Of a DNA stretch of 64,000 nucleotides, positions 18,123 to 58,340 are shown one piece after another. The stretch lies in IMG/VR virus record IMGVR_UViG_3300017761_005873, positions 65,261 through 129,260 of that record. The stretch is one strand, 5' to 3'. Numbering within the stretch: the stretch's first letter is position 1; each line of letters begins with the position of its first letter. Both the position numbers and the translations under genes were made by a program. The notes beneath the pieces were generated by a model. That model was not told the DNA's origin, did not search any database, and was given only the letters and a program-made list of their open reading frames with translations. The DNA comes from a virus.

Positions 18123-20501
18123 ATGGGATTTTTAAATTTTTTAAAAAATAATAGTGAACATAGAAAATCCATAAGAGTTAATACAAATATTGGTGATAAA
18201 TTTATCAATGTTAAACTTGGTCAAACTTATGAATCTATGGATATCCTATCTTTAAAAATCTTTCAAAAAGATTTGTATAGGTTATTTGATGCCGATTATG
18301 GGATTATTGTTGGTAGAGTATTAGGTCAAGGTGTTGGAATACCAAATGCTAAAGTTTCTGTCTTTATACCATTAGATGAGGAAGATATAACTAACCCTAC
18401 AACCTTAGAAGATATTAAAAGAATAGAAGCAACTGCTTTATATCCTTTTCAAACTGTGTTTAATAAAGATGGTAATGGAAAAATTTATAATCTATTACCA
18501 AAATATGCAAGAAATAGAAATGTTAATGGCTTTCCCGATAATCCCTATGGTATTGGTGCTACACCCAAAACACCTGTTGGAACATTTCCCGAAAAAGATG
18601 AAATATTAGTAAACGAAACTGTTGCTTATGTTTATGATAAGTATTTAAAATTTACAACAGTTACAAATGAAAGTGGTGATTATATCTTAACAGTACCATC
18701 AAATAAAACATATACAATAAATATGTCTTGTGATATTACTGATATTGGTAGATTTTCAACTTGTGCTGCATTATTAAAGTTAGATGGTTATCCTGATAAC
18801 TTTTTTTCTGAAGATGGAAGAACATTAAATGAAGAAATAGAATTAGAAAGATTACCAAACATTGACATACAAAATAATTCAATTACTGTTAAACCTTTAT
18901 GGAGTCAAAATAATGATAATTCTAATGTTGGTATTAATAGATTAGATTTTAATTTGATTAAAAAAATTAAACCATTTGTTACCATTATTGGTAATCAATT
19001 TACACAAAATTCAAGAGCATGGTGGGGTGATAAAATTCAATTTAGATTTGTAATTGGTATAAGAGCATTATGTTTTGATATATTTGGTGTAAGAATACAA
19101 ATAGATTATGTAGTACCATTTTTTGCTATTAGATTATTTGTAAGAAAAATGTGTACATTAAATGGTGGAAAAGGTGATTATGAACCTTTTGAAATGAAAT
19201 TTGTGGATGCAGGTACATCATGTACTAGAAGTGAAGCAGAACAAGTAATTACAGAAGGTATGACTGATGACATTTTTATTAATTCACATGTAAAAGGTGA
19301 TTTAGATATTAAACTTTTTAATATAAAAAATACAGTTCCTGAATCTGATGCAGAATTATTAAATCAAGGTGATACTTTTACTATTAATAGTTACTCATAC
19401 GATGAAGATATTGAATTATATGATAAAAATAAATATATTTATTATCAAAATCAAGGTAGTTTTTTATTTTTAATAAATTGCAACAGAAATAAAGTTATTA
19501 CAAATGAAAATGGAGATTTAATACCTGTTGATGATAATTCAGAAAAAGGTGTATTCACATCTTTTAGAGGATATTTTTATGTTACTAATTTATCGGATAT
19601 TGATAATCCACCAACTAGATATAGAGTTGGTAAAGTAAGATTAAAAGTACCTCAATTTTTTGATTATGGAGACCTGCCATTCTTTTACCTAACTGATACT
19701 ACTAAAAAATGGATTTGGAAACATTTTAAATTTGACTTTGGTAAAATTTATAGCGTTGCTCAAAAAACTATGGTAAGAAAATCAGAATTTGATTCAAATA
19801 CGGAAGGAGAAGATGATTATACTGTTGGAAAAGATGAAGATAAAGGATTTGCTAGTCAAACAAATTTATTACTTTTTGGTTCTAGAGAAGAAGATGTAAA
19901 TATAAATAATAGACTTCAAAATTATAACACAGGTTATACAAATTATGTAAACTCTTATAATCATATAGTTAATTTGGGTATTGATATTGGTGATAATTTA
20001 CCTACTACATTTAATGACCCATATATTGCACCAGGAAGTAATACAATAACAACAGGTACTACAGGAAGTGGAGTAGTAAATCCACCACAAACAGGAAGTG
20101 GTAATTTTAGATTCTCAATTAATGGAGATTCAATTGATAACCCAATTACACATACATTTAATATGATTGTTATTGGTGGTGCTGGTAGTGTTGATGTATA
20201 TGACCCTGAAATTAATAATATTTTAATAGAAAATACACCAGATGTTAGCGATAGTAGTTTTAGTAGTTTTTCTTATTATTTTATAGATATTAGTACAGGA
20301 AATCCAACTAGTCAACCAATACCATTATCAAATCCAACAGTTGTAAATAATAATGGGATATATATAATTACAAAATCATCAATTCAAAGTTATACTTTTA
20401 TCACTTTAGATGGACCAGGTGGTGTTTTTTCATATAATTTAGTTTTTAGAAATAATGCAACAAATCAAACACAAAGTACGTTAGTAAAATTCAGATTATA
20501 A
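18123..20501 (+). CDS. virion structural protein with N-terminal beta-sandwich (carboxypeptidase-regulatory-like) segment
   Basis: YGIIVGRV...GIPNAKVSVF, TTVTNESGDY; late motif upstream. Confidence 0.65.
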   Translation: MGFLNFLKNNSEHRKSIRVNTNIGDKFINVKLGQTYESMDILSLKIFQKDLYRLFDADYGIIVGRVLGQGVGIPNAKVSVFIPLDEEDITNPTTLEDIKRIEATALYPFQTVFNKDGNGKIYNLLPKYARNRNVNGFPDNPYGIGATPKTPVGTFPEKDEILVNETVAYVYDKYLKFTTVTNESGDYILTVPSNKTYTINMSCDITDIGRFSTCAALLKLDGYPDNFFSEDGRTLNEEIELERLPNIDIQNNSITVKPLWSQNNDNSNVGINRLDFNLIKKIKPFVTIIGNQFTQNSRAWWGDKIQFRFVIGIRALCFDIFGVRIQIDYVVPFFAIRLFVRKMCTLNGGKGDYEPFEMKFVDAGTSCTRSEAEQVITEGMTDDIFINSHVKGDLDIKLFNIKNTVPESDAELLNQGDTFTINSYSYDEDIELYDKNKYIYYQNQGSFLFLINCNRNKVITNENGDLIPVDDNSEKGVFTSFRGYFYVTNLSDIDNPPTRYRVGKVRLKVPQFFDYGDLPFFYLTDTTKKWIWKHFKFDFGKIYSVAQKTMVRKSEFDSNTEGEDDYTVGKDEDKGFASQTNLLLFGSREEDVNINNRLQNYNTGYTNYVNSYNHIVNLGIDIGDNLPTTFNDPYIAPGSNTITTGTTGSGVVNPPQTGSGNFRFSINGDSIDNPITHTFNMIVIGGAGSVDVYDPEINNILIENTPDVSDSSFSSFSYYFIDISTGNPTSQPIPLSNPTVVNNNGIYIITKSSIQSYTFITLDGPGGVFSYNLVFRNNATNQTQSTLVKFRL

Positions 20502-26301: not shown

Positions 26302-28062
26302 TTAGATTACATCTAACATGAACTCAGAAGGTGATGCAGTTGGTAAACCTTGTACCAATACTTTACCATAGAACCTGTTGTTAACGACTTTTTTCGCATA
26401 ACGAGTCATGATACCCATTACAGGTTTGAAGTCAGCAGGATTAATGGTCTTAGGCATCAACATCAACGGAACGTATGGAGCGTAGATGTAACCTGCATGG
26501 AAGATTGAATCTCCTTTGTGTCCTATAAGAACAACACCAGCAGGAGCATAAGCATCAACATATACTGTGTATCTGTTAGCTACAGAACCAACTTTCTCAA
26601 TACCTAAAGAGAACTTAGTTTCTTCAGCAGAAGCATCAGAAGCATGGAAGTACTCAAGGTCATTAAGAACAGCAGCAACTTCAGGAGAACATACAACCCA
26701 GTTTGCACCACCACGAAGAGTAAATTTCATGATACGAGCAGAGATTTGATTAATCTTAGTAATCAACTCTTGGTTGTAATCTTTACGAGTAATTGCAAAT
26801 GATTGACCAACATTGTTAAATCTTCTATCGTATGCTGAGTAATCCCAAACTTCAACATGTGAAGCGGATTTACGAAGGTCACGAAGGATTTCACGGTCAA
26901 TTTCACCTGATACAACTTCAGAAAGAAGTGCAGTTAATTCAGCTTCTACGTCAATTGAGTGGAAAGCGTTAACGTCTTGCTGAAGTTCAGGAGTGAAGGT
27001 AGCACCTAGCATTCTCTTTTCAACAGAAACGTCAATAAAGTCAAATGTAAAAGTTACTTGAGGAATCTCAGCATCTTCTTCCATTGAAGAATATGTATTC
27101 CAAGTAGCCTGAAGAGTAGTTCCTGCAAAACCATTACCAACAGACTTAAGACCCATACCAGTATTTGTAGCATAAGGATTTGTGCTATAAACAGTTCCAG
27201 CACTTACAGGAGAATTAAGAATCAATTCAACATCAATGAAAGTAGTGTCTCTTTTAACGATTTCTTTTGCATAAGCTTGCATTGGAACTCTAAAAGGAAT
27301 TGGAGAACCACCTGCAATAATAGTAGAACCATCAGCTTGAGAAGTCAAAGCAGAAGCTGCTGTAATTTTCAAACTCATTAAGAACGACTCAGTATCAACT
27401 GCTGAACCAACAGGACCTTGTAATTTACCTTCAGTAGTATAAGAAAAACCACTAAGTCTAACTAATGCTCTTGCAGAAGGAGTTGCACTACCTACAGTAC
27501 CTGAAATAATTTGTACCGATACTTGATTTGAAGTAACTCTACCTTTAGTTCTGTCAAAAAGACCTCCAACATCATCAAAATCACTACCATTGTTGTAGAA
27601 TGAATCATACAATGAAGTAGTCTGATATGGAGTTCCACCAGTTTTTACACCACTAGAATTATAATTATCAGCAGCATTAGAAAGTACACCATCAAATGTA
27701 GAGTGTCTACCACTAGTTCTAGTAGAAATTTTAGGGTTAATGAAATACAAACGACCAATCGGCATGTTCATAGCCTGAACAGAAACGATTTCGTTTGCAA
27801 GTAATTTTTGGAAAACACGTCTAATGATTGGGAACGCAACTGTCTCAAATGAACCTGAAGATGTAGCATCAGTAGATTCATTGATTAAGTAAGACGCTTG
27901 GTTCTCATACAATTGAGCAATGTTTTCAGCCATATGACCTTCAAGGCCATCAAGCAAGCCAAACTGATTCCATTTTTCGGTAATCAATTCACGCTGTTCT
28001 CTAAGTTGTCTGTATTCTTGACCAACTTTTCCAGAGTTAAGGATTTCGGTAATTCCGTACAT
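26302..28062 (-). CDS. major capsid protein (T4 gp23-like)
   Basis: PIIRRVF..L.ANEIVSVQAM..P.G, ELQQD..A.H.ID.EAEL, EIDREI, YAPYVPL, GIMTRYA; probable processing site LINE|S at aa 62. Confidence 0.95.
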   Translation of the reverse strand: MYGITEILNSGKVGQEYRQLREQRELITEKWNQFGLLDGLEGHMAENIAQLYENQASYLINESTDATSSGSFETVAFPIIRRVFQKLLANEIVSVQAMNMPIGRLYFINPKISTRTSGRHSTFDGVLSNAADNYNSSGVKTGGTPYQTTSLYDSFYNNGSDFDDVGGLFDRTKGRVTSNQVSVQIISGTVGSATPSARALVRLSGFSYTTEGKLQGPVGSAVDTESFLMSLKITAASALTSQADGSTIIAGGSPIPFRVPMQAYAKEIVKRDTTFIDVELILNSPVSAGTVYSTNPYATNTGMGLKSVGNGFAGTTLQATWNTYSSMEEDAEIPQVTFTFDFIDVSVEKRMLGATFTPELQQDVNAFHSIDVEAELTALLSEVVSGEIDREILRDLRKSASHVEVWDYSAYDRRFNNVGQSFAITRKDYNQELITKINQISARIMKFTLRGGANWVVCSPEVAAVLNDLEYFHASDASAEETKFSLGIEKVGSVANRYTVYVDAYAPAGVVLIGHKGDSIFHAGYIYAPYVPLMLMPKTINPADFKPVMGIMTRYAKKVVNNRFYGKVLVQGLPTASPSEFMLDVI

Positions 28063-28112: not shown

Positions 28113-30050
28113 TTATTTTCTCTTACCAAAATTATAGTTAAGTAATTGTTTAAACCTATTAGTTTCATCATTTTCATTGATTAAATTCTTTTCTGTGACA
28201 ATAGCATTGTCAGTTCTATGAACTTTACCAACTTTATTTTGTACTGATTCTTTTAGTAATGAACCATCTTTAACTGTTTGCCCTTTTGCAAACTCATTTG
28301 TTAATGAAATATAAGTTTCTTTAATTTGTTCTTTTGTTTGTGCATTTGCAAATCGATAAACAATTTCACTTTTCTCATTCTCTCTAAGAGGATGCTCAAG
28401 TAAGAATTTATTTACAAATCCTGCTTTTAATGCACTAATTGTTACATCATAGACTTTATTCTCTAATGATTTAACTTTATTTGCAAAACCTTCTTGAAGG
28501 TTTTTCTTTTCTGCTTCAAGTTTTTTAACTTTTTCATGTAAAGAAGTCATTTCTTCTTCATCCATATCTTCTTCAGAAACAAGAGTAGGTTTTGAACGTC
28601 TATCAGGTCTTCCTTGTGCAATAGCATCACCACCCATATTTCTTACAGATTTATGGGTACGGTCAAATGCACCACTTGCCTCCTCAAGTTCATCTTCTTC
28701 TTTCATTGTAGAAAGCATTTCTTCAATTTCAGCTTCTTCAGACATGTAATCTTCTTCAGGATTAACTTCAAATTTCATATTATTTCTAGATTTACCCTGA
28801 AAAGACATTCCTTCACCACCATCATCTTCAAGCATTTTGCTCATTTCTTCAAGTTCTTCCATAGACATCTCTTCAAACATTTCTTCAAGTTCATTACTTT
28901 GAGGATTTTTTGCACCTTTTTGTAGTCTATTCATTCCACTTGCTCTTTCAGAACGTCTCATAACACTTTCGTCTTCAACATCCATTTCAGCAAGCATTTG
29001 ATTAATTTGTTCATCAGTTAATTCTGAATCCATATAACCTTCATCAGACATTGGTTCATCATAATTACCTTCAGGCATATCAATTTCATACATTAAACCT
29101 TCATCTTCCATGTCATAACCTTCATCTTCCATGTCATAACCTTCATCATACATACCTTCTAATTGAGGTAGAGAATTAGTCCACTCATAATCATCACTAC
29201 CCATTTCATCTTCCATTTCATCTTCCATTTCATCTTCCATTCCATAGTTATCTTTAACGACAAAAGAATCATCTTCCTCCATATTATAATATGCTTCAAC
29301 TAATTTATTAAAGCTTACGTCTCTAAGGTCTTTTAGAACTTGTTTTTTAGTATTTTTCATTTTAGTATTATTTCTTTTAAAATTTTCATTTATTTTTTCA
29401 AAACTTTTTTCCTCTTCATCAGAATCCATTTCCTCTTCATCTTCAGGTTCTGCTAATACTTTATCATCAACATCAACATCTGAAAATTCATCTGAATCAT
29501 CAAATTCAATATCCTCTTCATCATCAGAATCTAATTCTTCTTCATCAGATTCCATTTCATCAGAATCCATATCCTCTTCATCATCAGAATCAGAAACTAA
29601 TTTAAATCCGTGTTCTTCTGCTGCTTTTCTTAGAGTATCTAAAGACATTTCTTCTTCATCAGATTCCATTTCATCAGAATCCATTTCATCAGAATCCATT
29701 TCTTCTTCATCATTATAATCTTCAAGTTCAGAAAGAATTTCATTCAAAGACATTTCTTTTTTCTTTGATTTTTTAGGTTTTTCTTCTTCCTCTTCTTCCT
29801 CTTCATCTTCTTCCTCTTCTTCTTCAGATTCCTTTTCTTCCTCCTCTTTTTCAGAGTCCTCATCTTCATCCTCTTCTTCTTCGGAATCATCTTCACCTGC
29901 AATTAATTTTTCAAACAATGCAGCAGATTTTTTTTCAAGCAAATCAGCACTTTCATTAATCAATTGCTCTTTGGCAAGTTCCAAAGATTCATTTTTAATA
30001 TTTTCAAGTTCTTGCAAACTATCTTGTAATAGAGATTTTTTATTTGTCAT
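28113..30050 (-). CDS. acidic prohead scaffold/core protein (gp22-like)
   Basis: Extremely D/E/M-rich, lies between protease and capsid genes, many [LIM]xE sites, C-terminal RFKQLLNY. Confidence 0.8.
   Translation of the reverse strand: MTNKKSLLQDSLQELENIKNESLELAKEQLINESADLLEKKSAALFEKLIAGEDDSEEEEDEDEDSEKEEEEKESEEEEEEDEEEEEEEEKPKKSKKKEMSLNEILSELEDYNDEEEMDSDEMDSDEMESDEEEMSLDTLRKAAEEHGFKLVSDSDDEEDMDSDEMESDEEELDSDDEEDIEFDDSDEFSDVDVDDKVLAEPEDEEEMDSDEEEKSFEKINENFKRNNTKMKNTKKQVLKDLRDVSFNKLVEAYYNMEEDDSFVVKDNYGMEDEMEDEMEDEMGSDDYEWTNSLPQLEGMYDEGYDMEDEGYDMEDEGLMYEIDMPEGNYDEPMSDEGYMDSELTDEQINQMLAEMDVEDESVMRRSERASGMNRLQKGAKNPQSNELEEMFEEMSMEELEEMSKMLEDDGGEGMSFQGKSRNNMKFEVNPEEDYMSEEAEIEEMLSTMKEEDELEEASGAFDRTHKSVRNMGGDAIAQGRPDRRSKPTLVSEEDMDEEEMTSLHEKVKKLEAEKKNLQEGFANKVKSLENKVYDVTISALKAGFVNKFLLEHPLRENEKSEIVYRFANAQTKEQIKETYISLTNEFAKGQTVKDGSLLKESVQNKVGKVHRTDNAIVTEKNLINENDETNRFKQLLNYNFGKRK
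29095..29710 (-). repeat. coding micro-repeats in the scaffold (DEGYDME, EDEM, DSDEM units)
   Basis: Tandem 21-, 12- and 15-nt units such as TCATCAGAATCCATT and TCATCTTCCATT. Confidence 0.8.
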
Positions 30051-30084: not shown

Positions 30085-30786
30085 TTAAGATTTAATTATA
30101 TTTCTTATGGATTCATCATATTTTTTTACATTATTGTTTTGAATATTTACCGATTCTTGTAAATTATCATTTTTTGTTTCTAAAAATAAATATGCGTTAG
30201 GTGTAGAAGGTGTTGCAACAAGGTCAAAACAAATAAGTTCAAAATCATCTTGAACAATATTTTTTCCACCTACTTTTTTAACACTACCTAATCCTCTTGA
30301 AGAGATACCAAGTTTTAGATTTCTTTGTAAGTAAAGAGCAATCTTATCACCAATTGTCCAACCAATACCATCTCTTAGAAATGAATCGCTGACGATAATA
30401 TCAAGAGTTCCAAATACTGCATTACCTGACCACCAAGTTTTAGCAATTCTATGAGAAATGTTTTGTAAAGAAATTGTAACAGATTCTGGATGGTCAGCTT
30501 CATTAAGTGCTGCATTATCATTAATAAGTTTTTGATATTCATCTATTTGTTTTGCTAATATTTCTCTTGGATAAACTCTACCATTACGGTTTAGTACATC
30601 AGCTTCTTGAAGTTTGCAATCAATATAGAAATGACTATCAAAATCATTTTTTCTAACTTTTGAATTTAAATCTTCAAATATTCTTTTATTATTTAATGTT
30701 AAATCATTGCTAATAATACCTGCATCGGTTTCAACTAATAACCCATAACCTTCTTGTCCTTCTTTTAGTAGTTGCACTTCTTTCAT
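30085..30786 (-). CDS. prohead core protease (T4 gp21-like)
   Basis: NRNGRVYP, EADHPES, SHRI, GISSRGLGS, FDLVATPSTPNAY. Confidence 0.93.
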   Translation of the reverse strand: MKEVQLLKEGQEGYGLLVETDAGIISNDLTLNNKRIFEDLNSKVRKNDFDSHFYIDCKLQEADVLNRNGRVYPREILAKQIDEYQKLINDNAALNEADHPESVTISLQNISHRIAKTWWSGNAVFGTLDIIVSDSFLRDGIGWTIGDKIALYLQRNLKLGISSRGLGSVKKVGGKNIVQDDFELICFDLVATPSTPNAYLFLETKNDNLQESVNIQNNNVKKYDESIRNIIKS

Positions 30787-31550
30787 TATTTATTTGAATT
30801 TAAATTTTTAATTTCAAAAAGTTTGGACAAATTAGAAACTGCTGTTTCAGATTGATATTCTAATGAATCAATAAAATCAAATGTTTCTGTTAATACTTCT
30901 GAACTAATATTATCTTTTTCATTTAATAAATGTGTTTTTGTTGATTTCTTATATGATTCAAAAACTGTTTTTTTCTTTTTTTCATCACCCTTAATAAAAC
31001 TTGAAATAATTTCCATTTCATCAGGTTGAAGATTTGAGAATTTTTCTTCTAATTTCTTTTTAGCTAAATTAAAAATATGAGTTACTTTAAAAGTATTGTC
31101 TGATTTTTTAATTTGAATCTCTTCTTTTTTAGTTAATGATTCAATTAAAAAATTTACTGATTCATGTAATTTATTAACATTAGTAATTTTTTTTAAAACA
31201 CTTTCATTAATAACATTTTCAATATTTTCATTAAGTTTTAATTTATCTTCTGATAATTCAATTTCTTTTAAATTAAATTTTTCAAGTTTTTTGTTTTCTT
31301 TTAGTAATTCATTTTTTTCAATTTTAGATAAAGCAGAAATATTAGCCTCAATAAATCTTAATGATTCATTATAATCTAAATTATGTTTTTTTAAATTCTC
31401 ATAAATTGTATATTCTAACATTAGAACAGGCGATGATTTAATTGTTTTTAAAAACTCTTCATATAACTTTTTATAGTTATTAGTATTATCAATTAAATCT
31501 TGAGAATAAGCTTTATTTAATTTTGACTTAACATTACCAAAATTTACCAT
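30786..31550 (-). CDS. putative prohead core protein
   Basis: 254 aa between portal and protease; INES and LHES sites; late motif at 31567-31574. Confidence 0.6.
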   Translation of the reverse strand: MVNFGNVKSKLNKAYSQDLIDNTNNYKKLYEEFLKTIKSSPVLMLEYTIYENLKKHNLDYNESLRFIEANISALSKIEKNELLKENKKLEKFNLKEIELSEDKLKLNENIENVINESVLKKITNVNKLHESVNFLIESLTKKEEIQIKKSDNTFKVTHIFNLAKKKLEEKFSNLQPDEMEIISSFIKGDEKKKKTVFESYKKSTKTHLLNEKDNISSEVLTETFDFIDSLEYQSETAVSNLSKLFEIKNLNSNK

Positions 31551-31588: not shown

Positions 31589-33403
31589 TTATTCCTTTAT
31601 TAATTTATTTAGTTCATTAGTCTTTTTAAATATTTCTTCACTTAAAAATCCTGCACCACCTGGCGCACCACCACCTGCTTCAGGACCACCTCCCATTGGA
31701 GGACCACCACCTAATTCAGCACCACCTCCCATTGGAGAACCGCCACCTAATTCAGCACCACCTCCCATTGGAGGACCACCTAAACTACCACCTAGACTAT
31801 TATCTATTTGTTGTTGTTCACCTTGTTGTTGATTACCAACATTAAATCCTGCATTCTTATATTTAATCATTTTATCCATAAGACCTGAAGATTTAAGCAA
31901 CATACCTGCACCTTTAATTTCTTCACCAACTTTAGATTCAAGCATTTGCTCTTGAAGGTCATTAATAATATCTTCTTCAGACATATGGAAGAATCTTTTC
32001 TTAGCCATCATTTCTGACATTGGTTTAATGTTAGTTGCATTGTTTGGTGTAGTAGCAGCTTGATATACTTCTAATTTAGATTTCCAAATTTCAAGTTGAA
32101 GTAAGTCAGATGCTGTTGATGGATTATTAAGAGATAATTTAAAATCATCAATATATGATTCATAATCACCACCAAGTAAACCCAAATGAATAATTGCTAT
32201 TTTATTAAGTTCACCAAGTAATGCTTGTTGAATACGATTTACTTTTCTTGCAAAACGAATATCAAGCATTGATAAATTTTTACCACCTCCTTCACCTGTT
32301 GATTCAGATGAAAAACCAAGCAATGTTTTATGAATACCTAAACCTGTAAACAAATTATCACGAAGATAATTAATATCAGAAATTGCCTCAAGATTTGATG
32401 CACCTGGAAGTGTATCAACAAATTGACCTGATGAATTACCTCTATCAGCAATAAATATATCTTCATCCATTGAAGCGATATTATATTTAAAGTTAATATC
32501 ACCTGTTTTAGGGTCAACTAATTTCTTTTTCTTTACATTATTAGCAAATGCTTCAAGAATTTGTGGAACATCTTCAGGTGGAACATTACCAACAGGAACT
32601 TTATAAATTCTTCTTTCTGCTGCTCTTGTGATACGATAAACCATCATCGCATCTTCCATCATAAAAAGTTGCTTATATGTTCTTCTTACTTTTTCATATA
32701 CACTACAACCATACGGAAGTCTATCACCTGTACCTAATAATCTAAAGTGTGCAATTTGATAATCCATGTATTCTTCTTCACCACCTGAATTTGGGTCTTT
32801 GTATTTAAAGAATGCTCTGAATCTTTGTTTTGTGTCATATTTTTCATTTCTTTCAACAAATTGAGATGCAAGTTGTCTGAAATCTACAACACCATTTTCT
32901 TTTGAAAGTTCTAAATAAACAAAGTTATCCCCATATTGACACATATTTCTACACCAATAAAATATATTTGTATTAACATCCATAACTTTATAAAAGAATC
33001 TTTCAAGTTCTTTTTTAACTTTATCGGATGAACAATAAATATTTAGAATTTGTCCTGTATCACTTTTTGTTGTTGTTGCTTCTTCAGCAAGTAAATCAAG
33101 TGCAGCACCTAAAATTGGATATCCATCCATTGATAGATAATCATAGTAGAGCATCATTCTACTAGATTCATACATCAATTTACGTTGGTCATTACCTCTA
33201 TCAATTTTAGTGCTTTGGTTTCTATAAAACTTTATTGCACCATCTTCTACAGCCTTTTTTGTTGCCTCTTCTTGAGAAGCAGCAGTAATAAATTCTTTTT
33301 GAACAGGTGCTTCAAATCTACCCTGTGTACTATCTAAAGCATCAGTTGCTCTTCTAAAGAAAGTATTAATGTTTGAAAATAAGCCTTTATTATCATCTGC
33401 CAT
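31589..33403 (-). CDS. portal protein (T4 gp20-like)
   Basis: QLFMMEDAMMVYRITRAAERR.YK..VGN, EDIFI, TLPGASNL..I.DINY; Gly/Pro-rich tail. Confidence 0.94.
   Translation of the reverse strand: MADDNKGLFSNINTFFRRATDALDSTQGRFEAPVQKEFITAASQEEATKKAVEDGAIKFYRNQSTKIDRGNDQRKLMYESSRMMLYYDYLSMDGYPILGAALDLLAEEATTTKSDTGQILNIYCSSDKVKKELERFFYKVMDVNTNIFYWCRNMCQYGDNFVYLELSKENGVVDFRQLASQFVERNEKYDTKQRFRAFFKYKDPNSGGEEEYMDYQIAHFRLLGTGDRLPYGCSVYEKVRRTYKQLFMMEDAMMVYRITRAAERRIYKVPVGNVPPEDVPQILEAFANNVKKKKLVDPKTGDINFKYNIASMDEDIFIADRGNSSGQFVDTLPGASNLEAISDINYLRDNLFTGLGIHKTLLGFSSESTGEGGGKNLSMLDIRFARKVNRIQQALLGELNKIAIIHLGLLGGDYESYIDDFKLSLNNPSTASDLLQLEIWKSKLEVYQAATTPNNATNIKPMSEMMAKKRFFHMSEEDIINDLQEQMLESKVGEEIKGAGMLLKSSGLMDKMIKYKNAGFNVGNQQQGEQQQIDNSLGGSLGGPPMGGGAELGGGSPMGGGAELGGGPPMGGGPEAGGGAPGGAGFLSEEIFKKTNELNKLIKE
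31686..31783 (-). repeat. 33-nt coding repeats (GGPPMGGGAEL) in the portal C-terminus
   Basis: About 3 copies of CCACCTCCCATTGGAG...CCTAATTCAGCA. Confidence 0.8.
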
Positions 33404-33442: not shown

Positions 33443-35221
33443 TTATCTTACAAATATGTAAGGATTATTATTTATTTTAGGTGTCTGACGTTCAGGCATC
33501 TCAATACTATTGCCATTTTTGTACCAATCTTTTGGTCTTGATGAATCATTTAATCTTTCATAATTTACATCTTGACCATCTTGTGATATCATTTTCTTTT
33601 GGAACTCAGTATTCATATCTGTAAATTCATCACCTTTCCTAATGGTTGCTGATTTTGCTAAACTTAAATAAATATTCAATTCATTTCCATATTTTTTAGA
33701 AAACATATAAACAGCAAATAGCATACCTGTTGCTATCAATAAGTCATCATGTGCTGAACGCATGTGGTCATATCTATTTGTACTATCATTAAATACAAAT
33801 GTTTTAATTTCACTTAATAATCTAATTGAATTAATTATTGCTTCACCTTCTCTTAATCTTCTTTCAAACTCTCTTAATACATAATCACGAATTGCACCAC
33901 TTTTCATTGTAAATCCTGGTTGCAATTCACCTCTTTGAAATGATTTTAATTGTATTTTTACATCATTTTGTCTTGGTTTATCATAATGTAATTTTTTATA
34001 TTTGTTATTAATTAAGAATCTAATAACTGATATACCCCAACCTCCTGTAACATCGACAATTATATAAGCATTATTATATTTTGTACCATATTGTAAACAT
34101 AATTCACCCATAACCTCAAGCGGTACTCTTGCTTGATATTCAGCTACTTGAACAAGTAACATATTCACAGGGTCATTCTTAAATATTTCAATTGTAGAAT
34201 AGTCACCATCACCACTACCTTTTGCAACGTCACAAGAAAGATAATAATCATAACCATCAATAGCATCTTCCCATATCCAAAAGTTATTATCAAACTCTGT
34301 TCTGATAGGCTCTTTACAAGTTTTTTCAATTCTCATAATAGTTTCCTCATCAACAAGGTTACCACCAGAACCTAAAAATTTATTTTCTAATTCTTGTGCA
34401 ATCTTTCTTGGGTCATTGTTAAATGTTTGACACATATCTCTAAACCATGAAGATGATGGTCTATAACCCATTTCTTTTAAATCTTTATATTTTTCAGGTT
34501 CTTTTTCTTCAATAAATTCATCACCTCTAATCCAAACTAAATCATCATTATATCTTGGGTCTTCATACCAATTAATTTCAACAACTTTAAAGTTATTCTT
34601 TCCTGTTCTTGCTCCTTCATAACGAGCATAATAAGTTGGGTCAAGACCTCTTGGTGTTGAGTTTAATATAATTTGACCTCCTGCTGACATTGTACCTGAT
34701 GCAGAAGACATAAATTCTTCACCTTCTTCAAGAAAGGCTGCTTCATCAATAAAAAGTACATCGGGTGTAAAACCCCTTAAACCATCAGCAGACGCTGCGA
34801 AAGCCTGTAGCGTTGCACCATTATTATAAATCTTAATCTCTTTTGTATCTGATTCAGTTGGTATTCTATTAAATATTTCTCTTGGTAAATTATTAATAAT
34901 GGATGCAATCTGATAGAAGATACTTTCTTTTGCAAGTTTCAATTTGTTAGCAGCAACACCTACTTTAATATCTTTTCTAAAAACTAATGAATGTGCTAAA
35001 TATAAACAAGTCACGGTAGTAATACCACCTTGACGATACTTAGCAACTAAAACTCTGTTACTTTCTTTGTATTTATTTAATACTTGAACTTGTTGAGGTA
35101 ATAATTGAAAAGCAACATACTGTTGTCTTTTCTTATCCCAAACTTTACAATATTTTCTTGCAAAGTACTCTACATCAATAGCGCACTTAGCATATTCCAT
35201 CATTAGTTCATGCTTAGTCAT
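33443..35221 (-). CDS. terminase large subunit (gp17-like)
   Basis: KYRQGGITT Walker A variant, FIDEAAF, STPRG, DVAKGSG.GDYS, HDDLLIA. Confidence 0.94.
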   Translation of the reverse strand: MTKHELMMEYAKCAIDVEYFARKYCKVWDKKRQQYVAFQLLPQQVQVLNKYKESNRVLVAKYRQGGITTVTCLYLAHSLVFRKDIKVGVAANKLKLAKESIFYQIASIINNLPREIFNRIPTESDTKEIKIYNNGATLQAFAASADGLRGFTPDVLFIDEAAFLEEGEEFMSSASGTMSAGGQIILNSTPRGLDPTYYARYEGARTGKNNFKVVEINWYEDPRYNDDLVWIRGDEFIEEKEPEKYKDLKEMGYRPSSSWFRDMCQTFNNDPRKIAQELENKFLGSGGNLVDEETIMRIEKTCKEPIRTEFDNNFWIWEDAIDGYDYYLSCDVAKGSGDGDYSTIEIFKNDPVNMLLVQVAEYQARVPLEVMGELCLQYGTKYNNAYIIVDVTGGWGISVIRFLINNKYKKLHYDKPRQNDVKIQLKSFQRGELQPGFTMKSGAIRDYVLREFERRLREGEAIINSIRLLSEIKTFVFNDSTNRYDHMRSAHDDLLIATGMLFAVYMFSKKYGNELNIYLSLAKSATIRKGDEFTDMNTEFQKKMISQDGQDVNYERLNDSSRPKDWYKNGNSIEMPERQTPKINNNPYIFVR

Positions 35222-36096: not shown

Positions 36097-37287
36097 TTAA
36101 ACTATTTTTCTTTTAATGTTTTCGATTAAATATTTTCGTTTTCTCTTTAAAATTTCTTGTTCCAATTGTTCTTTAAGTATTAACTTAGCTTTTTGTTTTA
36201 AGTTTCCTAAAAACTTCTCATCTAATTTTTCAGTTGATGGCTCTTCAATAGTTTCTTCTTCAGGAGCAGGTTCTTCAACAGGTGCTTCTTCTTTATTAGT
36301 TTCAACACTTTCTTTTGAACCCTGCATTTTTTTATAAAAAGATTCAACAGTTTTATCACCTACTAATTTAAACCCTTCATCACCAATTGCACTAATAAGA
36401 CTGTTCATTGCATTCTTAATGTCTTTTTCATCAAATTGTTCACTATCTTGAAGTTCATTGATTGTTTGACCTAATTTACCAACAGCTTCTTGAAATTCTT
36501 TTTTAGGGTCAATTTCTTCACCTTCAGGAGCAGGTGCTTCTTCAGGAGCAGGTGCTTCTTCAGGAGCAGGTTCTTCAACAGGTGCTTCTTCAGCAGAAGG
36601 TTCTTCAGCAGGTGCAGCTTCTTTATCACCAATACCACCTAAAATATCGTCTGCCATTTCTTTTGGTGATTCGCCTTTTGGTTGTGTATCCATAGGAGCA
36701 GGAGGCATATCTCCACCCATTTCAGGAGCAGCACCCATATCTCCACCCATTTCAGGAGCAGCACCCATATCTCCACCCATTTCAGGAGCAGATGCTTCTT
36801 TATCTTTATCTAAATTTTTTAAAAGACTATCTTCAGTAGAATCAGTAGTTACAGGTTTTTCATCAGATTTAGTTCCTTCTGAATCTGTAGACTCTTCTGA
36901 ATCATCAATAATATCTTCTTCTTTTTCTGTTAACAATCTTAATTTATGAGCATTATTTTGTGCTTCACAAATAAATGACATTTTATTATTTGCCTTGTCA
37001 AAAGAGTTAAACTTTTCAATACCAAAAGTAACATTTAAACCATCTAAATGTTTAAAATCAGTTGGGTTTGTACTTCCCTTTTTAGTAGTATATTTTAAAT
37101 AATAGGTTTTATTCTCATGAATAATGCCAAATGTTTTACCATCCAAAGTTTTTTGGATTTTCAATAGAGAAGGCTTTAATTGAACTTTTTTATCAGTATC
37201 AATTGCTAATCTTTTAAAATTTTCAGCAATCTGTTCTTTAGTTGCCCTTTCTCTACTAATTTTACTTGCATCTGCTCTTTTTATCAT
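36097..37287 (-). CDS. acidic Pro/Ala-repeat putative head-core protein
   Basis: 396 aa with APEMGGDMG and EEAPAP repeats, LTE/LDE/LKE/LIE sites. Confidence 0.6.
   Translation of the reverse strand: MIKRADASKISRERATKEQIAENFKRLAIDTDKKVQLKPSLLKIQKTLDGKTFGIIHENKTYYLKYTTKKGSTNPTDFKHLDGLNVTFGIEKFNSFDKANNKMSFICEAQNNAHKLRLLTEKEEDIIDDSEESTDSEGTKSDEKPVTTDSTEDSLLKNLDKDKEASAPEMGGDMGAAPEMGGDMGAAPEMGGDMPPAPMDTQPKGESPKEMADDILGGIGDKEAAPAEEPSAEEAPVEEPAPEEAPAPEEAPAPEGEEIDPKKEFQEAVGKLGQTINELQDSEQFDEKDIKNAMNSLISAIGDEGFKLVGDKTVESFYKKMQGSKESVETNKEEAPVEEPAPEEETIEEPSTEKLDEKFLGNLKQKAKLILKEQLEQEILKRKRKYLIENIKRKIV
36525..36791 (-). repeat. 30-nt and 18-nt tandem coding repeats
   Basis: About 3 copies of TTCAGGAGCAGCACCCATATCTCCACCCAT; CTTCAGGAGCAGGTGCTT repeats; a 35-nt block duplicated at about 36256 and 36556. 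Confidence 0.85.
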
Positions 37288-37317: not shown

Positions 37318-37884
37318 TTAATATCTTCTTCTTTTTCTGTTTTCAAAAATACCACCTTCAGGTTGATTACCTGTACCAATTGCTTCAATACCTCTATCTA
37401 AAGAATCATTGGTAAGACCTTTTCTTTTTGCACTATCAACAAATGTCATTGCTTGTGCAATTTTAGCATCTGTATCTAATACTTTATCAGAAATAAATGA
37501 TAATAAATAACGATAATCACTACCATCTTTTCCTAACTCTAAAGCAACATCATTTAGTTTATCCGTAGGGTTACCAAAAAATTTACCTACTTTTCTAAAT
37601 GATTTATCTAGTAGTCTACTACCCCCTTGTTTACCCATTCCAGCAGCACTCATTGAACCTGCTTCTTTCAAACCTTTTCTTTTATAAAGTTGACTTTTAA
37701 GCATTTGATTTTCTCTTTGAAGAGATTTGACTTTTTCTTCAAGCATTTTATGCTTTGTTTCGCTAAATACTTTATTGAAATCAACTTCATCCAAAGAATT
37801 TTTTCTATATCCTTCTTTAATTAATTCCCTCTTAGCTTGAACAAAATTTTCAAAAACTAAATTATATAGTTGTTTGTTTGTCAT
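37318..37884 (-). CDS. putative head-packaged protein
   Basis: Late motif at 37900-37907; LIKE/LDE/LEE/LKE sites; ends IFENRKRRRY. Confidence 0.55.
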   Translation of the reverse strand: MTNKQLYNLVFENFVQAKRELIKEGYRKNSLDEVDFNKVFSETKHKMLEEKVKSLQRENQMLKSQLYKRKGLKEAGSMSAAGMGKQGGSRLLDKSFRKVGKFFGNPTDKLNDVALELGKDGSDYRYLLSFISDKVLDTDAKIAQAMTFVDSAKRKGLTNDSLDRGIEAIGTGNQPEGGIFENRKRRRY

Positions 37885-37902
37885 ATCAATATTTTATTAT
37901 AA

Positions 37903-39174
37903 TTAGTTAGAATTTATGGAAAATAGAATATTTACTATTTCTTTTTTATTGTTACTAATGATATCAAAAACTTTTTTATTTCTTAATACTTTAAAAACTA
38001 AATTATCAACAGAGAATTCACCTTCTTCTTTTGTAGACTTTCTACGGTCATCTCTTATTTTTTCCATCACTTTTGTGTAACTTTGTAATTTCTTTTTAGA
38101 GTCTTTCATTATTGATATCTTATTTAAGATATCTAAATATTTGTTTACTTTTTGAGTAATTAAATGTTTATCAACATTAGGTAGTTTATACTTTGGTTTT
38201 TTAATCCATTTATTATTAAGTAATGAATACATCGCACCCATACCTTTATCATCAAGTTGAGATTCATTTTGAACATATATTTCAACAGGATAATTATTTA
38301 TTTTAATTTCATTTGAATCTGCCCACAATGCTCTTTTATCACCAAAAAATTCTTTAGCAAACTCTTCATCGTCAGTTAAATCTTTATAATTAATCACAAG
38401 ATGTAAATCAATATCAGATAAATTTGTGTAATTATAATTTGCTAAACTACCTGTAAAAACAATATCTTTTAATTCAACACCTAAATCTAATTGATTAAAA
38501 TAAAATTTAGCAAGTGTTAATAATTTTTTTCGTATATTACTTTTTAAATGATTGTTTAACCAAAACTTTGAATTTAATTTTTTATGGTACTCAATTTCAA
38601 TATCTGTTTTTAATTTAGATGGTAATTCATCTTCCATTATTAATGATTCATTCATTGAAATATCAATACCTAATATATCACTAATTTTAATATTTTTTAA
38701 ATTTAATGTACCATGAACTAATGGTTTATAATAACCTTTTGAATAAACATATTCCATAAGATAATATAAATACTTAGGGTCAAGTTTATCTATTGCTGTA
38801 ACTTTAATACCTATATGTTCAGGATTATATTCTTTTACAGGTTTACCAACCTTTTCTTCACTACCTCTTCTAATTATCCAAAAATCGGCATCAGGAAAAT
38901 TTGTTTTGGCATTAATAAAAAGTCCTAATTTAGATTCATTTAATAAATCTTTATTAATCGCTTCTTCTAACTTAGCTTTTTTAAGTTTTGTATAATATTT
39001 TGGGTCTTCAGCTAAATGGTCCATAGCAATTTCCTTTGCTTGTTTTTTATTATCAGTATGTTCCATTTCGGTTTTAACACCTAATTTAAATTGAGATGTT
39101 AAATCCTCAATTGGAAGTTTATGTTTTTTAGCAATCTGAGGCAATGTTAATTTATCTGCTTTACCACCTTTCAT
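37903..39174 (-). CDS. multi-domain protein: DUF5661-like + HsdS/TRD-like + Pol-beta-type nucleotidyltransferase
   Basis: EMEHT...EIAMDHLAEDPKYYTKL; LDPKYLYYLM...HGT.NLKNIKISDI; FTGSLANYNY...SDIDLH, PVEIY. Confidence 0.7.
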   Translation of the reverse strand: MKGGKADKLTLPQIAKKHKLPIEDLTSQFKLGVKTEMEHTDNKKQAKEIAMDHLAEDPKYYTKLKKAKLEEAINKDLLNESKLGLFINAKTNFPDADFWIIRRGSEEKVGKPVKEYNPEHIGIKVTAIDKLDPKYLYYLMEYVYSKGYYKPLVHGTLNLKNIKISDILGIDISMNESLIMEDELPSKLKTDIEIEYHKKLNSKFWLNNHLKSNIRKKLLTLAKFYFNQLDLGVELKDIVFTGSLANYNYTNLSDIDLHLVINYKDLTDDEEFAKEFFGDKRALWADSNEIKINNYPVEIYVQNESQLDDKGMGAMYSLLNNKWIKKPKYKLPNVDKHLITQKVNKYLDILNKISIMKDSKKKLQSYTKVMEKIRDDRRKSTKEEGEFSVDNLVFKVLRNKKVFDIISNNKKEIVNILFSINSN

Positions 39175-39198
39175 TTGAAATATCGTATTTTATACATA

Positions 39199-39219
39199 TA
39201 AATAGAAAAAAACTATTTA
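39199..39219. promoter_or_regulatory. back-to-back putative late promoters
   Basis: TAAATAGA (TCTATTTA on the minus strand) and ACTATTTA, 5 nt apart between divergent genes. Confidence 0.7.
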
Positions 39220-39231
39220 TAATAAAATATT

Positions 39232-39708
39232 ATGTTTAGATACGATAAAAATAGAGTTAACAAGGAAGTTGATGAATTGAAAAGACTTCTTGCAATAACA
39301 AAAGGTGCTAAAACATCAAATAAATCTATTTCTGCTTCCTTTTTAAAGGAAGAACTTGATTTAACAGGTAATCAAATACAACCACCTTCATCTGACATGG
39401 GTGGAGATATGGGTGGTGATATGGATAAACCTATGGGTGATATTGGTACAAATGACTCAAAAGAAATTGAAAAAGCAATTCAAAATTCAACCGTTACAAC
39501 TGTAGGTCCTGAAGGTGATACACAAATTGTTAAAGGTTACGTTGCAACATCTGATGATGAAAAAGGATTGTATTTTAAATTTTCTTCAAAAGAACCAAAT
39601 CCTGTAATTCAAACAAAAAAAGCAATTACATTAGATGATGATTTATTAAAATCAATTGAACAAATCGCAACATATTTTGATACTTGGAAAACTAATGTTG
39701 AAAAATAA
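39232..39708 (+). CDS. putative head-associated protein
   Basis: Late motif; EVDELKRLL and FLKEE; DMGG repeats like those in 36097-37287. Confidence 0.55.
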   Translation: MFRYDKNRVNKEVDELKRLLAITKGAKTSNKSISASFLKEELDLTGNQIQPPSSDMGGDMGGDMDKPMGDIGTNDSKEIEKAIQNSTVTTVGPEGDTQIVKGYVATSDDEKGLYFKFSSKEPNPVIQTKKAITLDDDLLKSIEQIATYFDTWKTNVEK

Positions 39709-40061
39709 TGGATAAAACTAATGGATTACAAATTGTTCTTTTATTTATTGTAACTGTTATATTATCAATTTTTATTTATTTAATAAATGAAAAAACTGAT
39801 AAAACAACTGAAAATATTATTATAACAAATCAAGAAGTAGAAAATATAAAAAAAGAAACAAAAGAGTTTAAAATTAGATATCAAACATTAAAAAAAATTA
39901 ATGACTCAATCTTTTTATTAATTGATAAACAAAATATAAAAATTATAACATACAATAGAAGAATAAGTGAATTAGAAAATGATGAAAAAGATGTTAAAAA
40001 AGTTATTGGTAGTATTAGTGATAGTACCCTTTATAGGTTACTCTCAGAAACTCCATACTAA
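39708..40061 (+). CDS. i-spanin-like protein (N-terminal TM plus periplasmic coiled coil)
   Basis: LQIVLLFIVTVILSIFIYLI followed by heptads; overlaps the next ORF in another frame. Confidence 0.55.
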   Translation: MDKTNGLQIVLLFIVTVILSIFIYLINEKTDKTTENIIITNQEVENIKKETKEFKIRYQTLKKINDSIFLLIDKQNIKIITYNRRISELENDEKDVKKVIGSISDSTLYRLLSETPY

Positions 40062-40425
40062 AACATTAAAGCCTATAAGTTTTATAAAAGAAAAAAATAA
40101 TTCCTTTTACACATTTGATTCAGAACAGACTAGATTTTTTTATGAAACTAAATTATTAAAAGAATTATGTGATAAGAAAACTTTATATAAAGATTCAATA
40201 ATTCAATCACAAAATAAAATTATTGAAGATATTAATAATATAAATAAAAATAATAAATCTGAATTAGATAGTTGCAATAAAATTGTTAATAAACAAGTTT
40301 TATTTATTTCTAAGCAAGATAGTATAATTAATTATCAACATAAAATTATTGATAAGAAAAATATAAAATTATCTTTTCTTAGTGGTACAAGTTTAGCTAT
40401 TATAATTGCTATGTTGTTTCTTTAA
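39979..40425 (+). CDS. exported coiled-coil protein with C-terminal TM (candidate spanin partner)
   Basis: MLKKLLVVLVIVPFIGYS|Q signal peptide, coiled coil, C-terminal LSGTSLAIIIAMLFL. Confidence 0.5.
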   Translation: MMKKMLKKLLVVLVIVPFIGYSQKLHTKTLKPISFIKEKNNSFYTFDSEQTRFFYETKLLKELCDKKTLYKDSIIQSQNKIIEDINNINKNNKSELDSCNKIVNKQVLFISKQDSIINYQHKIIDKKNIKLSFLSGTSLAIIIAMLFL

Positions 40426-58174: not shown

Positions 58175-58258
58175 GTCAGAGTGATGGAACTGGTAGACAT
58201 GCAGGACTTAAAATCCTGTGGCAGCAATGCCGTAAGGGTTCGATTCCCTTCTCTGATA
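58175..58258 (+). tRNA. tRNA-Leu(UAA), CCA not encoded
   Basis: Acceptor GTCAGAG/CTCTGAT, anticodon arm CAGGA-CTTAAAA-TCCTG, long variable arm, AAGGG-TTCGATT-CCCTT. Confidence 0.93.
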
Positions 58259-58263
58259 CATAA

Positions 58264-58337
<74 letters not shown>

Positions 58338-58340
58338 CAA

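Follow-up and report, generated by a model that had tools for sequence, protein, structure and literature searches.

A polyvalent phage protein with three separable modules and a swappable middle, encoded next to the head genes of an uncultured freshwater phage

In a window of 64,000 nucleotides (positions 65,261 to 129,260 of IMG/VR record IMGVR_UViG_3300017761_005873, itself 129,260 nt long and rated 40% complete), an open reading frame (ORF) at 37903..39174 on the minus strand encodes a polyvalent phage protein, referred to below as P0001, which consists of three autonomous modules: an N-terminal DUF5661 domain, a compact domain with the fold of a target recognition domain (TRD), hereafter the mini-TRD, and a nucleotidyltransferase (NTase) of the Pol-beta superfamily. 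The frame is single and free of internal stops (423 residues plus the stop codon, 49 kDa for the full-length chain); the gene proposed in an initial annotation of the window, in which the strand was missing, is thus real. The middle of P0001 behaves as a swappable slot in a manner resembling an arms race, a conclusion that is well supported by the comparison of orthologs. The carrier is an uncultured phage from freshwater metagenomes, with DNA of about 25% G+C: near-identical DNA is present in runs labeled freshwater metagenome, and the public metagenomes hold one identical protein and one 88%-identical protein. On the function of P0001 we are evenly divided: it may be a polyvalent effector chain that is made late, loaded into the prohead, delivered to the host and possibly cut by the phage S77 protease.

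Separable modules and an exchangeable middle

A search with the whole protein returned 1877 relatives, the best 120 of which were listed. According to BLAST maps, the N-terminal ~72 residues of the orthologs (ending KLKKAKLEE) and their NTase (from ~[ED]x[LI]P[SK]KL onward) are 65–89% identical, and the segment between them differs in kind: (i) it is absent in forms of 317–335 residues, such as P0010, P0020, P0026 and P0040; (ii) it is the TRD module in P0003, P0007 and P0008; (iii) in P0037 and P0048, it is a module with an SDGRHR motif and a weak match to ParB (TIGR00180, E = 2.6e-4); (iv) in P0012, P0017, P0019, P0022 and P0036, it is a cassette of ~280 residues (cassette C) with a hydrophobic stretch at its start. 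Paired middle modules are found in P0004 and P0009, and in P0023 and P0024, while P0055 carries a CCA-adding enzyme (PolyA_pol head plus RNA-binding domain) ahead of DUF5661–NTase. Two additional forms look like in-frame microhomology deletions of longer ones: in P0011, the first part of cassette C is joined, at a common IP-I, to the last part of the TRD module, and in P0018 an inner part of cassette C is deleted. An ortholog encoded by a single ORF of 1183 residues (L008, 4297-7848) has LNE motifs at its new joints; judged by eye, its order is CCA-adding enzyme, a segment with an HD-like motif, DUF5661, a ~280-residue cassette and the NTase.

Local hidden Markov models were run over 343 fetched proteins, a set biased by the way in which it was gathered. 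They assigned 36 proteins to the architecture DUF5661–NTase, 11 to DUF5661–C–NTase, nine to the reverse order NTase–DUF5661, seven to DUF5661–TRD–NTase and two each to DUF5661–C–TRD–NTase, DUF5661–C–ParB–NTase and DUF5661–ParB–NTase. The TRD was present without DUF5661 and the NTase, alone or with other partners, in 148 proteins; 48 proteins had the NTase only and 69 had DUF5661 only. The initial annotation had viewed the domains as separable, a view that one inseparable fold in all homologs would contradict. This is clearly not what the homologs look like: the NTase and the TRD-like module occur alone, and all three modules occur in shuffled fusions.

Nine IMG/VR contigs carry the ortholog in the same gene order, with large terminase subunits (TerL) that are 87–91% identical. 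Since this gene order is common to nine contigs with such similar TerL, the variation of the middle is allelic at one locus. In one DNA contig of public run X6 (depth 4.6), positions 38627-38962 (336 bases) are swapped in frame for 30 other letters; at the protein level, residues 72–183 are replaced by ten residues that resemble the P0055 linker. The contig represents a naturally occurring allele that lacks the TRD cassette. An intein or a homing element was considered as the cause of the variable middle and rejected, because a folded TRD domain, of which stand-alone homologs exist, makes up the insert and because derived alleles also look like microhomology deletions.

Three folds: compact TRD, NTase and DUF5661

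The middle module (38659..38928, minus strand; residues ~83–172) bears conserved PDADFW, GIKV, YLYY and GTL motifs. Its predicted local distance difference test (pLDDT) score is below 50 in the AlphaFold2 (AF2) model of the whole protein because the alignment is shallow there; modeled alone from an alignment of 60 short relatives, it reaches a mean pLDDT of 89.3. In a VIA-align comparison of this model with 48,161 chains, ranks 1–15 were all TRDs, originating from restriction–modification (R-M) S subunits, adenine methyltransferases and the half-S protein Esub1, and the next, unrelated chain had a Z-score of 2.8. The Z-scores of the TRDs were 8.9 for 7eew, 8.7 for 1yf2, 7.8 for S.BsaXI, 7.4 for PacII-S, 7.1 for 1ydx, 6.6 for CamA, 6.5 for 3okg and for Esub1, 6.3 for EcoR124I, 5.8 for BseCI and for EcoKI, 4.7 for TaqI, 4.4 for PglX, 3.9 for BpuSI and 2.9 for MmeI. 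Esub1 (8VSQ) is described in the available text of PMC11754733 as a half-S-subunit TRD protein. Foldseek against the PDB placed HsdS 1ydx on top (E = 3.7e-3, probability 1.00), together with S.BsaXI; against BFVD, it placed a true member of the mini-TRD family first, followed by giant-virus methyltransferase and S-domain proteins. When the family profile was compared with PDB sequences, the best two of three rows were HsdS MG438 (1ydx, E = 0.07) and S.BsaXI (E = 0.098). The alignment with MG438 covers 'LDPxYLYY...GT..L.NI', the stretch in which the initial annotation had seen the end of a type I TRD. The likeness to HsdS holds at the level of the fold, but the module is a whole compact domain rather than the end of one. 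About 90–105 of its residues align to TRD stretches of 125–180 residues, and in the model a single ~90-residue domain leads into a short helix and then a linker of low confidence, with neither a coiled-coil spacer nor a second TRD. As modeled, the middle of P0001 is a minimized TRD.

This domain defines a large uncatalogued module family. With residues 76–190 as the query against 1.84 billion cluster representatives (50% identity), 385 relatives were found at E ≤ 1e-3, 237 of them at E ≤ 1e-10, so that the family counts 385 clusters at 50% identity without a Pfam entry. Their carriers range from stand-alone proteins of ~95 residues to chains of 2722 residues, the module occurring at any position; the stand-alone proteins of 95–97 residues start exactly at the module start, with MKLG. 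No Pfam family falls on the module in P0001 or in the 129 carriers scanned, NCBIfam returned nothing for P0001 or for its middle module, and PADLOC gave a marginal mad5 row on the TRD part (E = 0.0085). Among 59 relatives, identity to the P0001 module is 36–60%, with near-invariant A-D-F-W, R, G, Y and G-x-L. Judged from these alignments, the mini-TRD is unusually conserved for a TRD, as the TRDs of R-M systems are described, in the accessible part of PMC10853773, as rapidly evolving.

The initial annotation had proposed that this module is an anti-restriction decoy, which would mimic an HsdS- or BREX-type TRD and titrate the methyltransferase or restriction subunits of the host. Its TRD fold is now confirmed; in one case, P0225, the mini-TRD and ArdA share a chain; and T-even phages inject internal proteins that counteract restriction, as far as the available text of PMC12373910 goes. 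However, the mini-TRD is devoid of the conserved coiled-coil regions by which HsdS joins HsdM, it is a single ~90-residue domain where the matched TRDs have 125–180 residues, and its identity between widely differing proteins is 40–60%, with invariant motifs, in contrast to the rapidly evolving R-M TRDs (PMC10853773, same part). Pfam Methylase_S had no match at E ≤ 1 in P0001 or in a six-frame search of the record, and N6_Mtase had none in the 129-kb record (40% complete), where an hsdM partner was not found. Altogether, we consider a decoy improbable; neither such a role nor any substrate proposed for the NTase goes beyond speculation.

The C-terminal module (37906..38619, minus strand; residues 186–423) comprises a Pol-beta-superfamily NTase and a C-terminal helical bundle. 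It corresponds to PHROG 36119, a family whose function is not annotated and which matches residues 191–414 with an E-value of 3e-39. The catalytic motifs G242-S243 and D254-x-D256 (38407..38451, minus strand), already pointed out in the initial annotation, are intact, as is the third carboxylate, E298 (38281-38283, minus strand), and the core fold matches that of the superfamily; in alignment A1 (42 sequences), columns G242, D254, D256, H258 and E298 are invariant. Pfam NTase models matched residues 208–299 below threshold (E = 0.007 and 0.058), with NTP_transf_2 and MTPAP-like at 14.2 and 16.9 bits for cut-offs of 21 and 27, which are not reached; the relative P0075 exceeds the Pfam NTase cut-off with 33 bits. 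The NTase domain has a pLDDT of about 90 in the AF2 model. VIA-align retrieved the minimal NTases 2rff (Z = 7.6, root-mean-square deviation (rmsd) 3.3 over 98 residues) and 1ylq (Z = 6.8), as well as FAM46. Foldseek retrieved CdnE, AAD(9) and ANT(6) at E-values of ~3e-3 or weaker, its best row being CdnE 6wt9 with E = 2.9e-3, a TM-score of 0.15–0.19 and an rmsd of 16 Å. PADLOC gave a marginal PDC-S09 row on the NTase (E = 0.004), and a sequence search of the PDB with the whole protein had no match at E ≤ 10. The fold scores are too weak and too little discriminating to assign the enzyme to one NTase subfamily (CD-NTase, aminoglycoside NTase or RNA NTase). The Atlas clusters near the NTase are 92–100% viral. 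Thus, as its sequence indicates, the NTase is virus-specific and has retained its catalytic residues.

A role of this enzyme in RNA-end repair is hinted at by the fusions of its relatives to a CCA-adding enzyme and to a 2H phosphoesterase and by the tRNA genes of the phage. The NTase would then belong to a phage set that heals tRNA or RNA 3' ends against a tRNA-directed defense of the host, the other modules being riders. The orthologs P0055 and L008 carry a complete CCA-adding enzyme ahead of DUF5661–NTase, L008 also has the HD-like-motif segment judged by eye, the distant NTase relative P0099 is fused to a phosphoesterase of the 2H / LigT type, the phage encodes adjacent tRNA genes for Leu(TAA) and Arg(TCT) (58175-58338, plus strand), and CCA-adding enzymes and the terminal NTases FAM46 and CutA are among the weak-score fold neighbors. 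On the other hand, sharing a polyvalent chain does not imply sharing a pathway: members of the NTase family are found joined to GNAT as well, and one Atlas structural-neighbor cluster of the NTase carries Zeta_toxin. Furthermore, the fold matches do not separate CD-NTases, aminoglycoside NTases and RNA NTases, and the 129-kb record (40% complete) yielded no CCA-adding enzyme. We therefore regard RNA-end repair as a rather unlikely, though not negligible, role for the NTase.

The N-terminal module (38977..39138, minus strand) matches Pfam DUF5661 (PF18905) over residues 13–66 with an E-value of 1.9e-14 and 54 bits, twice the cut-off of 27 bits, which bears out the DUF5661-like N-terminus of the initial annotation; EMEHT and AMDHLAEDPKYYTKL lie at the positions that it gave. 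In the whole-protein AF2 model, the domain forms four helices with a pLDDT of about 80–88 and extends to about residue 70. VIA-align of the 423-residue model barely probed DUF5661, as helical-bundle matches to residues 333–423 dominated the result; for the NTase, it bore out no more than a generic core. The 803 DUF5661 relatives, of 232–741 residues, carry the domain at the N-terminus, internally or at the C-terminus. Its partners in these relatives include ParB_N, DUF6934 and an ABC ATPase, and, in Atlas clusters, CTP_transf_like, HD, DUF6321 and DUF5824; an Atlas feature search with DUF5661, its own family left out, gave no usable match. In Vibrio phage VPs20, DUF5661 lies inside a DUF2213 protein, whose gene is flanked on one side by the terminase gene and on the other by further structural genes, the last of which are tail genes. 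DUF5661 was absent from the literature searched.

Head genes, linker motifs and possible packaging

The P0001 gene heads a minus-strand block that continues with the genes for TerL (33443-35221), a T4-type portal of the Gp20 family (31589-33403), a protein of 254 residues rich in Lys, Glu and Leu in the position of gp67/68 (30786-31550, no family match), the prohead protease (30085-30786), a scaffold-like hyper-acidic protein (28113-30050; 645 residues, 22% Glu and 11% Asp, repeated MDSDEMESDEE units) and a capsid protein of the Gp23 family (26302-28062; 586 residues), all on the minus strand. The hyper-acidic protein lies in the position of the T4 gp22 scaffold and has no family match. The protease, which the initial annotation had proposed at these coordinates, belongs to Peptidase_S77, the family of T4 gp21 (Pfam E = 9.6e-24; PHROG 207 E = 8e-43); its gene lies 7 kb downstream of the P0001 gene and is transcribed in the same direction. 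The closest cultured TerL, that of Flavobacterium phage immuto, is 30% identical. An 18-nt gap separates the P0001 gene from the next gene, before which a scan found no terminator-like site, and a 57-nt spacer separates it from the divergent gene at 39232. Met-Gly-Gly-Asp-Met-Gly repeats are found in both flanking genes: one (36097-37287, minus strand) encodes an acidic protein of 396 residues with APEMGGDMGA three times, the other (39232-39708, plus strand) a protein of 158 residues with DMGGDMGGDM, both without a Pfam or PHROG family. The next ORFs, 39708-40061 and 39979-40425 (both plus strand), overlap by 83 nt in different frames, and both are kept in related contigs.

The spacer upstream of P0001 contains TATAAATA, a motif resembling T4 late promoters (39214-39221, minus strand), which ends 39 nt before the ATG; the initial annotation had credited the gene with a late motif. 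Six of the eight orthologous loci have the motif and almost all of the spacer in identical form; the spacer of the other two is not comparable because the genes there are N-terminally extended. In the window as a whole, TATAAATA occurs at chance level (27 copies for 23.7 expected). Non-coding DNA, which makes up 7.9% of the window, contains eight of the 27 copies, and four copies lie 27–39 nt upstream of correctly oriented ORFs (9202-9513, 18123-20501, the P0001 gene and 39232-39708). No sigma-70-like site was found in the upstream spacer, and a scan of 37700-39400 for sigma-70-type promoters gave 14 sites for 14.2 expected. One site in this chance-level region, at 37861-37889 (minus strand), matches the sigma-70 consensus at 11 of 12 positions (TTGATA, 17 nt, TATAAT) and spans the end of the P0001 gene and the start of the next gene. 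One metatranscriptome run held an exact 228-nt contig in the neighboring gene (37624-37851) and an imperfect 35-nt piece in the P0001 gene; with the latter alone, it was discarded as uninformative on P0001 transcription.

T4 Alt, the T4 internal proteins and the Dar proteins of P1 are packaged in the virion and delivered with the DNA, and T4 gp21 cuts after Glu in L/I-x-E. From the position of its gene and by analogy with these systems, we infer that P0001 is packaged into the virion: it would be made late, together with the head proteins, be loaded into the prohead and enter the host with the DNA, where its modules would act as early counter-defense or host-takeover effectors. More tentatively, the S77 prohead protease would cut the chain after Glu at LNE78|S and at MNE176|S or IME181|D, so that the pieces would match the stand-alone versions of the modules. 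As a guess, the NTase would move a nucleoside monophosphate onto a host protein, an RNA 3' end or a small molecule, and the TRD-like module would bind DNA or one conserved partner.

The two linkers of P0001 contain the candidate S77 sites. Linker 1 (38929..38970, minus strand; residues 69–82, KLEE-AINKDLLNE-SK) has [LIM]xE motifs at 69 and 78, its pLDDT is below 50 in the whole-protein model, and it forms one edge of the variable middle of the orthologs. Linker 2 (38620..38658, minus strand; residues 173–185, ISMNE-SLIME-DELP) has such motifs at 174 and 179, and the same 'GMNESL' joint follows the mini-TRD in the unrelated P0129 and P0130. Four of the six [LIM]xE motifs of P0001 lie in these two linkers of ~14 residues and none in the 238-residue NTase. 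The average over the proteins of the window is 1.74 per 100 residues; two proteins in scaffold position have 4.65 and 5.5, but they are very rich in Glu, and the reversed motif is frequent in them too. Six [LIM]xE motifs lie within residues 1–62 of the capsid protein, the sixth being INE62, followed by STDATSSGSFETVAFP, and the next one comes only at residue 327; this pattern looks like that of a T4-style propeptide whose maturation site is near residue 62.

A broader signal comes from the joints of diverse TRD-bearing proteins, which were examined in 16-residue windows, after removal of joints more than 40% identical, and compared with random windows of the same proteins. The motif [LIM]xE is present at 38 of 82 upstream joints (p = 4e-11) and at 24 of 55 downstream joints (p = 6e-7), versus 15.5% of random windows. 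The reversed motif Ex[LIM] is present at 9 of 82 and 16 of 55 joints (p = 0.007 for the latter), versus 14.8%, and the Asp analog [LIM]xD at 8 of 82 and 4 of 55, versus 13.6%. The Glu content of these linkers is only 1.5 times the background. Glu peaks at 30% (background 6.9%) six residues ahead of the first Leu of the module and is followed by Ser at 23%; the stand-alone TRD proteins with an MKLG start begin just past this peak. The motif with Glu in P1 thus appears to be directional and position-specific, and a head-protease cleavage is a plausible explanation for it. The corresponding statistics at the edges of DUF5661 and the NTase were not used, since conserved edge residues fall in the windows and the NTase joints number 13 upstream and 17 downstream. 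Peptidase_S77 is encoded in 7 of the 18 virus records with a TRD-bearing protein, including all three rated at least 90% complete.

Several observations weigh against packaging and cleavage. In the linkers of the P0001 family, [LIM]xE occurs 3.79 times per 100 residues and the reversed motif 5.1 times; since the latter is at least as frequent, the clustering of motifs in the window does not by itself exceed what linker composition would give. Hence, the gp21-type sites that the initial annotation placed at the domain boundaries (LEE-A, LNE-S, MNE-S and IME-D) are present, but their clustering says no more than that. The joint motifs might also have travelled along with the mobile module without any selection for cleavage, and 11 of the 18 TRD-bearing records, all of them incomplete, are without an S77 match. 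No short capsid-targeting leader of the T4 type (10–20 residues plus a protease site) was found in P0001: [LIM]xE does not occur in it before residue 54, and the DUF5661 domain itself forms its N-terminus. Nor is DUF5661 simply a propeptide, since it is not always N-terminal, following the NTase in nine proteins and being internal in many others. Some homologs of the modules in cultured phages are encoded away from structural genes: Flavobacterium phage immuto encodes a DUF5661 protein among metabolic genes, and stand-alone NTase homologs lie among small non-structural genes, for instance beside NUDIX in Maribacter phage Colly_1. Finally, an avoidance of protease sites in the NTase had to be dropped as evidence of cleavage: the P0001 NTase has no [LIM]xE for 2.9 expected by shuffling (p = 0.036), but the NTases of its lineage are depleted in both motifs alike (46 [LIM]xE and 40 reversed motifs for ~144 expected). 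In diverse NTases without DUF5661 (P0069–P0121), the counts are 110 [LIM]xE for 161 expected and 228 reversed motifs for 160 expected.

The failure of the reversed-motif control within the P0001 family also speaks for a different view, in which P0001 is an intracellular multidomain enzyme, neither packaged nor cleaved, whose DUF5661 and TRD steer or regulate the NTase and whose variable middle retargets it. DUF5661 and the NTase are fused in both orders (at least 36 proteins with DUF5661 first and nine with the NTase first, the NTases of the latter being only 30–39% identical), a Rosetta-stone hint, and other partners of DUF5661 are nucleotide enzymes (CTP_transf_like, HD, ParB_N and the CCA-adding enzyme). 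Moreover, the TRD of gamma-class methyltransferases, which the fold matches to TaqI, CamA and BseCI bring to mind, acts in cis with a catalytic domain, and the Colly_1 and immuto homologs lie outside structural modules. Yet the NTase is intact in orthologs whose middle is missing or unrelated, indicating that the enzyme does not need the TRD; the TRD module is joined to many unrelated enzymes and also exists alone; the P0001 gene is consistently the first of the head-assembly operon; and the Glu motif is directional at TRD joints. We consider such an enzyme possible but less probable than a late-made, prohead-loaded effector chain.

Polyvalent company, known systems and significance

The packaged-chain reading also draws on the company kept by the modules. 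A Pfam scan covering 129 of the 149 listed TRD-bearing proteins found a Pfam family elsewhere in the chain in 31 of the 129, none of them overlapping the module: ART-PolyVal (eight), DUF6321 (six), GNAT (five), Glyco_hydro_19 (three), DUF6934, sigma70_r4 and PcfJ (two each, one PcfJ protein also having ArdA), and Hydrolase_2, ParB_N, dCMP deaminase, Pol-beta NTase, PRTase-CE and CTP_transf_like (one each). In jumbo-phage contigs, the TRD module and DUF5661 are found in adjacent, overlapping giant ORFs. In two such contigs (L034, 3667-10276, and L030, 5149-11460; contigs of 141–329 kb), the overlapping giant ORFs draw on the same pool of modules, namely GNAT-like repeats and deaminase-like, mini-TRD, DUF5661, ParB-like and ART-like modules, and internal joints in one jumbo phage are ORF starts (MKLxDxLxE) in another. 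Eight DUF5661 proteins (P0276, P0279, P0281, P0283, P0292, P0295, P0315 and P0340) consist of short units that recur along the chain. The unit 'x-K-E-[AS]-T-G-x-x-S-[SA]-G-x-[YF]-x-x-P-x-F' resembles the predicted maturation site and N-arm of the capsid protein; another, with Cys and His ('EKWSQKYKxSIDCxNPKGFSQKAHC'), is also found in jumbo-phage ORFs of L030 and L034. These units may be extended protease or capsid-binding motifs.

Polyvalent proteins, known from conjugative elements as well as from phages, carry unrelated effector-type domains on one chain, with shuffled and solo occurrences, and their phage versions sit beside late or virion genes, as set out in the available text of PMC5512222. 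Members of the group enter the recipient cell together with the DNA. P0001 resembles them in having at least two unrelated effector-type domains, in the separate distribution of its three modules, in the shuffling with hallmark domains (the mini-TRD keeps company with ART-PolyVal, GNAT, ParB, ArdA and lysozymes) and in its location beside late and virion genes, conserved in nine loci. It differs from them in its processing: PMC5512222 proposes a zincin-like metallopeptidase hub domain, frequent though not present in every member, as a self-processing device, whereas the Pfam scan of P0001 found no peptidase family at E ≤ 1, and hence no such hub. The main text of that paper contains neither 'TRD' nor 'HsdS', and its supplementary domain lists may name the modules otherwise; no link between polyvalent proteins and a target recognition domain was drawn in the publications consulted.

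The head machinery of the phage is of the T4 type, with an S77 protease, as in the case of T4 Ip1-3 and Alt. gp21 trims N-terminal peptides off Alt and the internal proteins, its giant-phage homologs cutting at A/S-x-E (available text of PMC9958956 and PMC5694885). The ip loci of T-even phages form a hypervariable hotspot, the N-terminal leader being all that they share (PMC12373910 and PMC3012670, in the parts available); similarly, the P0001 locus has a conserved N-terminal part followed by variable cargo at a fixed position. However, the T4 leader comprises 10–20 residues (PMC5694885), whereas the N-terminal unit of P0001 is a folded domain of ~70 residues that is elsewhere also internal or C-terminal, and P0001, in contrast to the T4 internal proteins, chains several cargoes in one ORF with a constant C-terminal NTase. 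The ejection or inner-body proteins of phiKZ and SPN3US have N-terminal propeptides of more than 100 residues, which a gp21-like protease removes; it cuts behind Glu in small-residue-x-Glu motifs, in many cases more than once in the same protein (PMC5694885). P0001 shares with them candidate sites of the Glu type, read from its sequence, but no sequence relation to them was seen, none having been searched for, and they lose a propeptide and are not described, in the accessible text of the same paper, as chains of exchangeable effector modules. As to the modules themselves, the mini-TRD has the fold of the TRDs of HsdS, gamma-class methyltransferases and Esub1 (Z = 8.9–5.8); unlike HsdS, it is a minimal single domain without a coiled-coil spacer, no partner methyltransferase was found in the record, and it is conserved rather than hypervariable. 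Likewise, the GS and DxD...E motifs and the core fold of the NTase are those of minimal NTases, CD-NTases and aminoglycoside NTases, but the P0001 NTase family, unlike these, is nearly exclusive to viruses.

These comparisons lead us to a wider, tentative proposal, which we hold with less confidence than the packaging of P0001 as an effector chain. S77-bearing T4-type and jumbo phages would deliver early effectors as 'beads-on-a-string' (DUF5661, mini-TRD, ParB-like domains, NTases, ARTs and GNATs), joined by short hydrophobic-x-Glu linkers that the prohead protease, and not a built-in metallopeptidase, would cut inside the capsid. Cargo would be exchanged by gain and loss of in-frame cassettes at a fixed slot of the head operon, and the conserved mini-TRD, which would be a new and widespread injected effector, would bind one conserved nucleic-acid or defense target.

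Should cleavage and packaging both fail, P0001 would still be an ordinary, nicely documented modular phage protein with an NTase. If the proposal is true, it joins polyvalent effector proteins with capsid-targeted, gp21-trimmed internal proteins, two ideas so far kept apart, the head protease becomes a candidate for a general processing enzyme of effector chains, and the mini-TRD family marks candidate injected effectors in the genomes of uncultured phages. As for the locus itself, it offers a natural example of near-identical phages exchanging cassettes within a single gene, the pattern to be expected where an arms race is under way.

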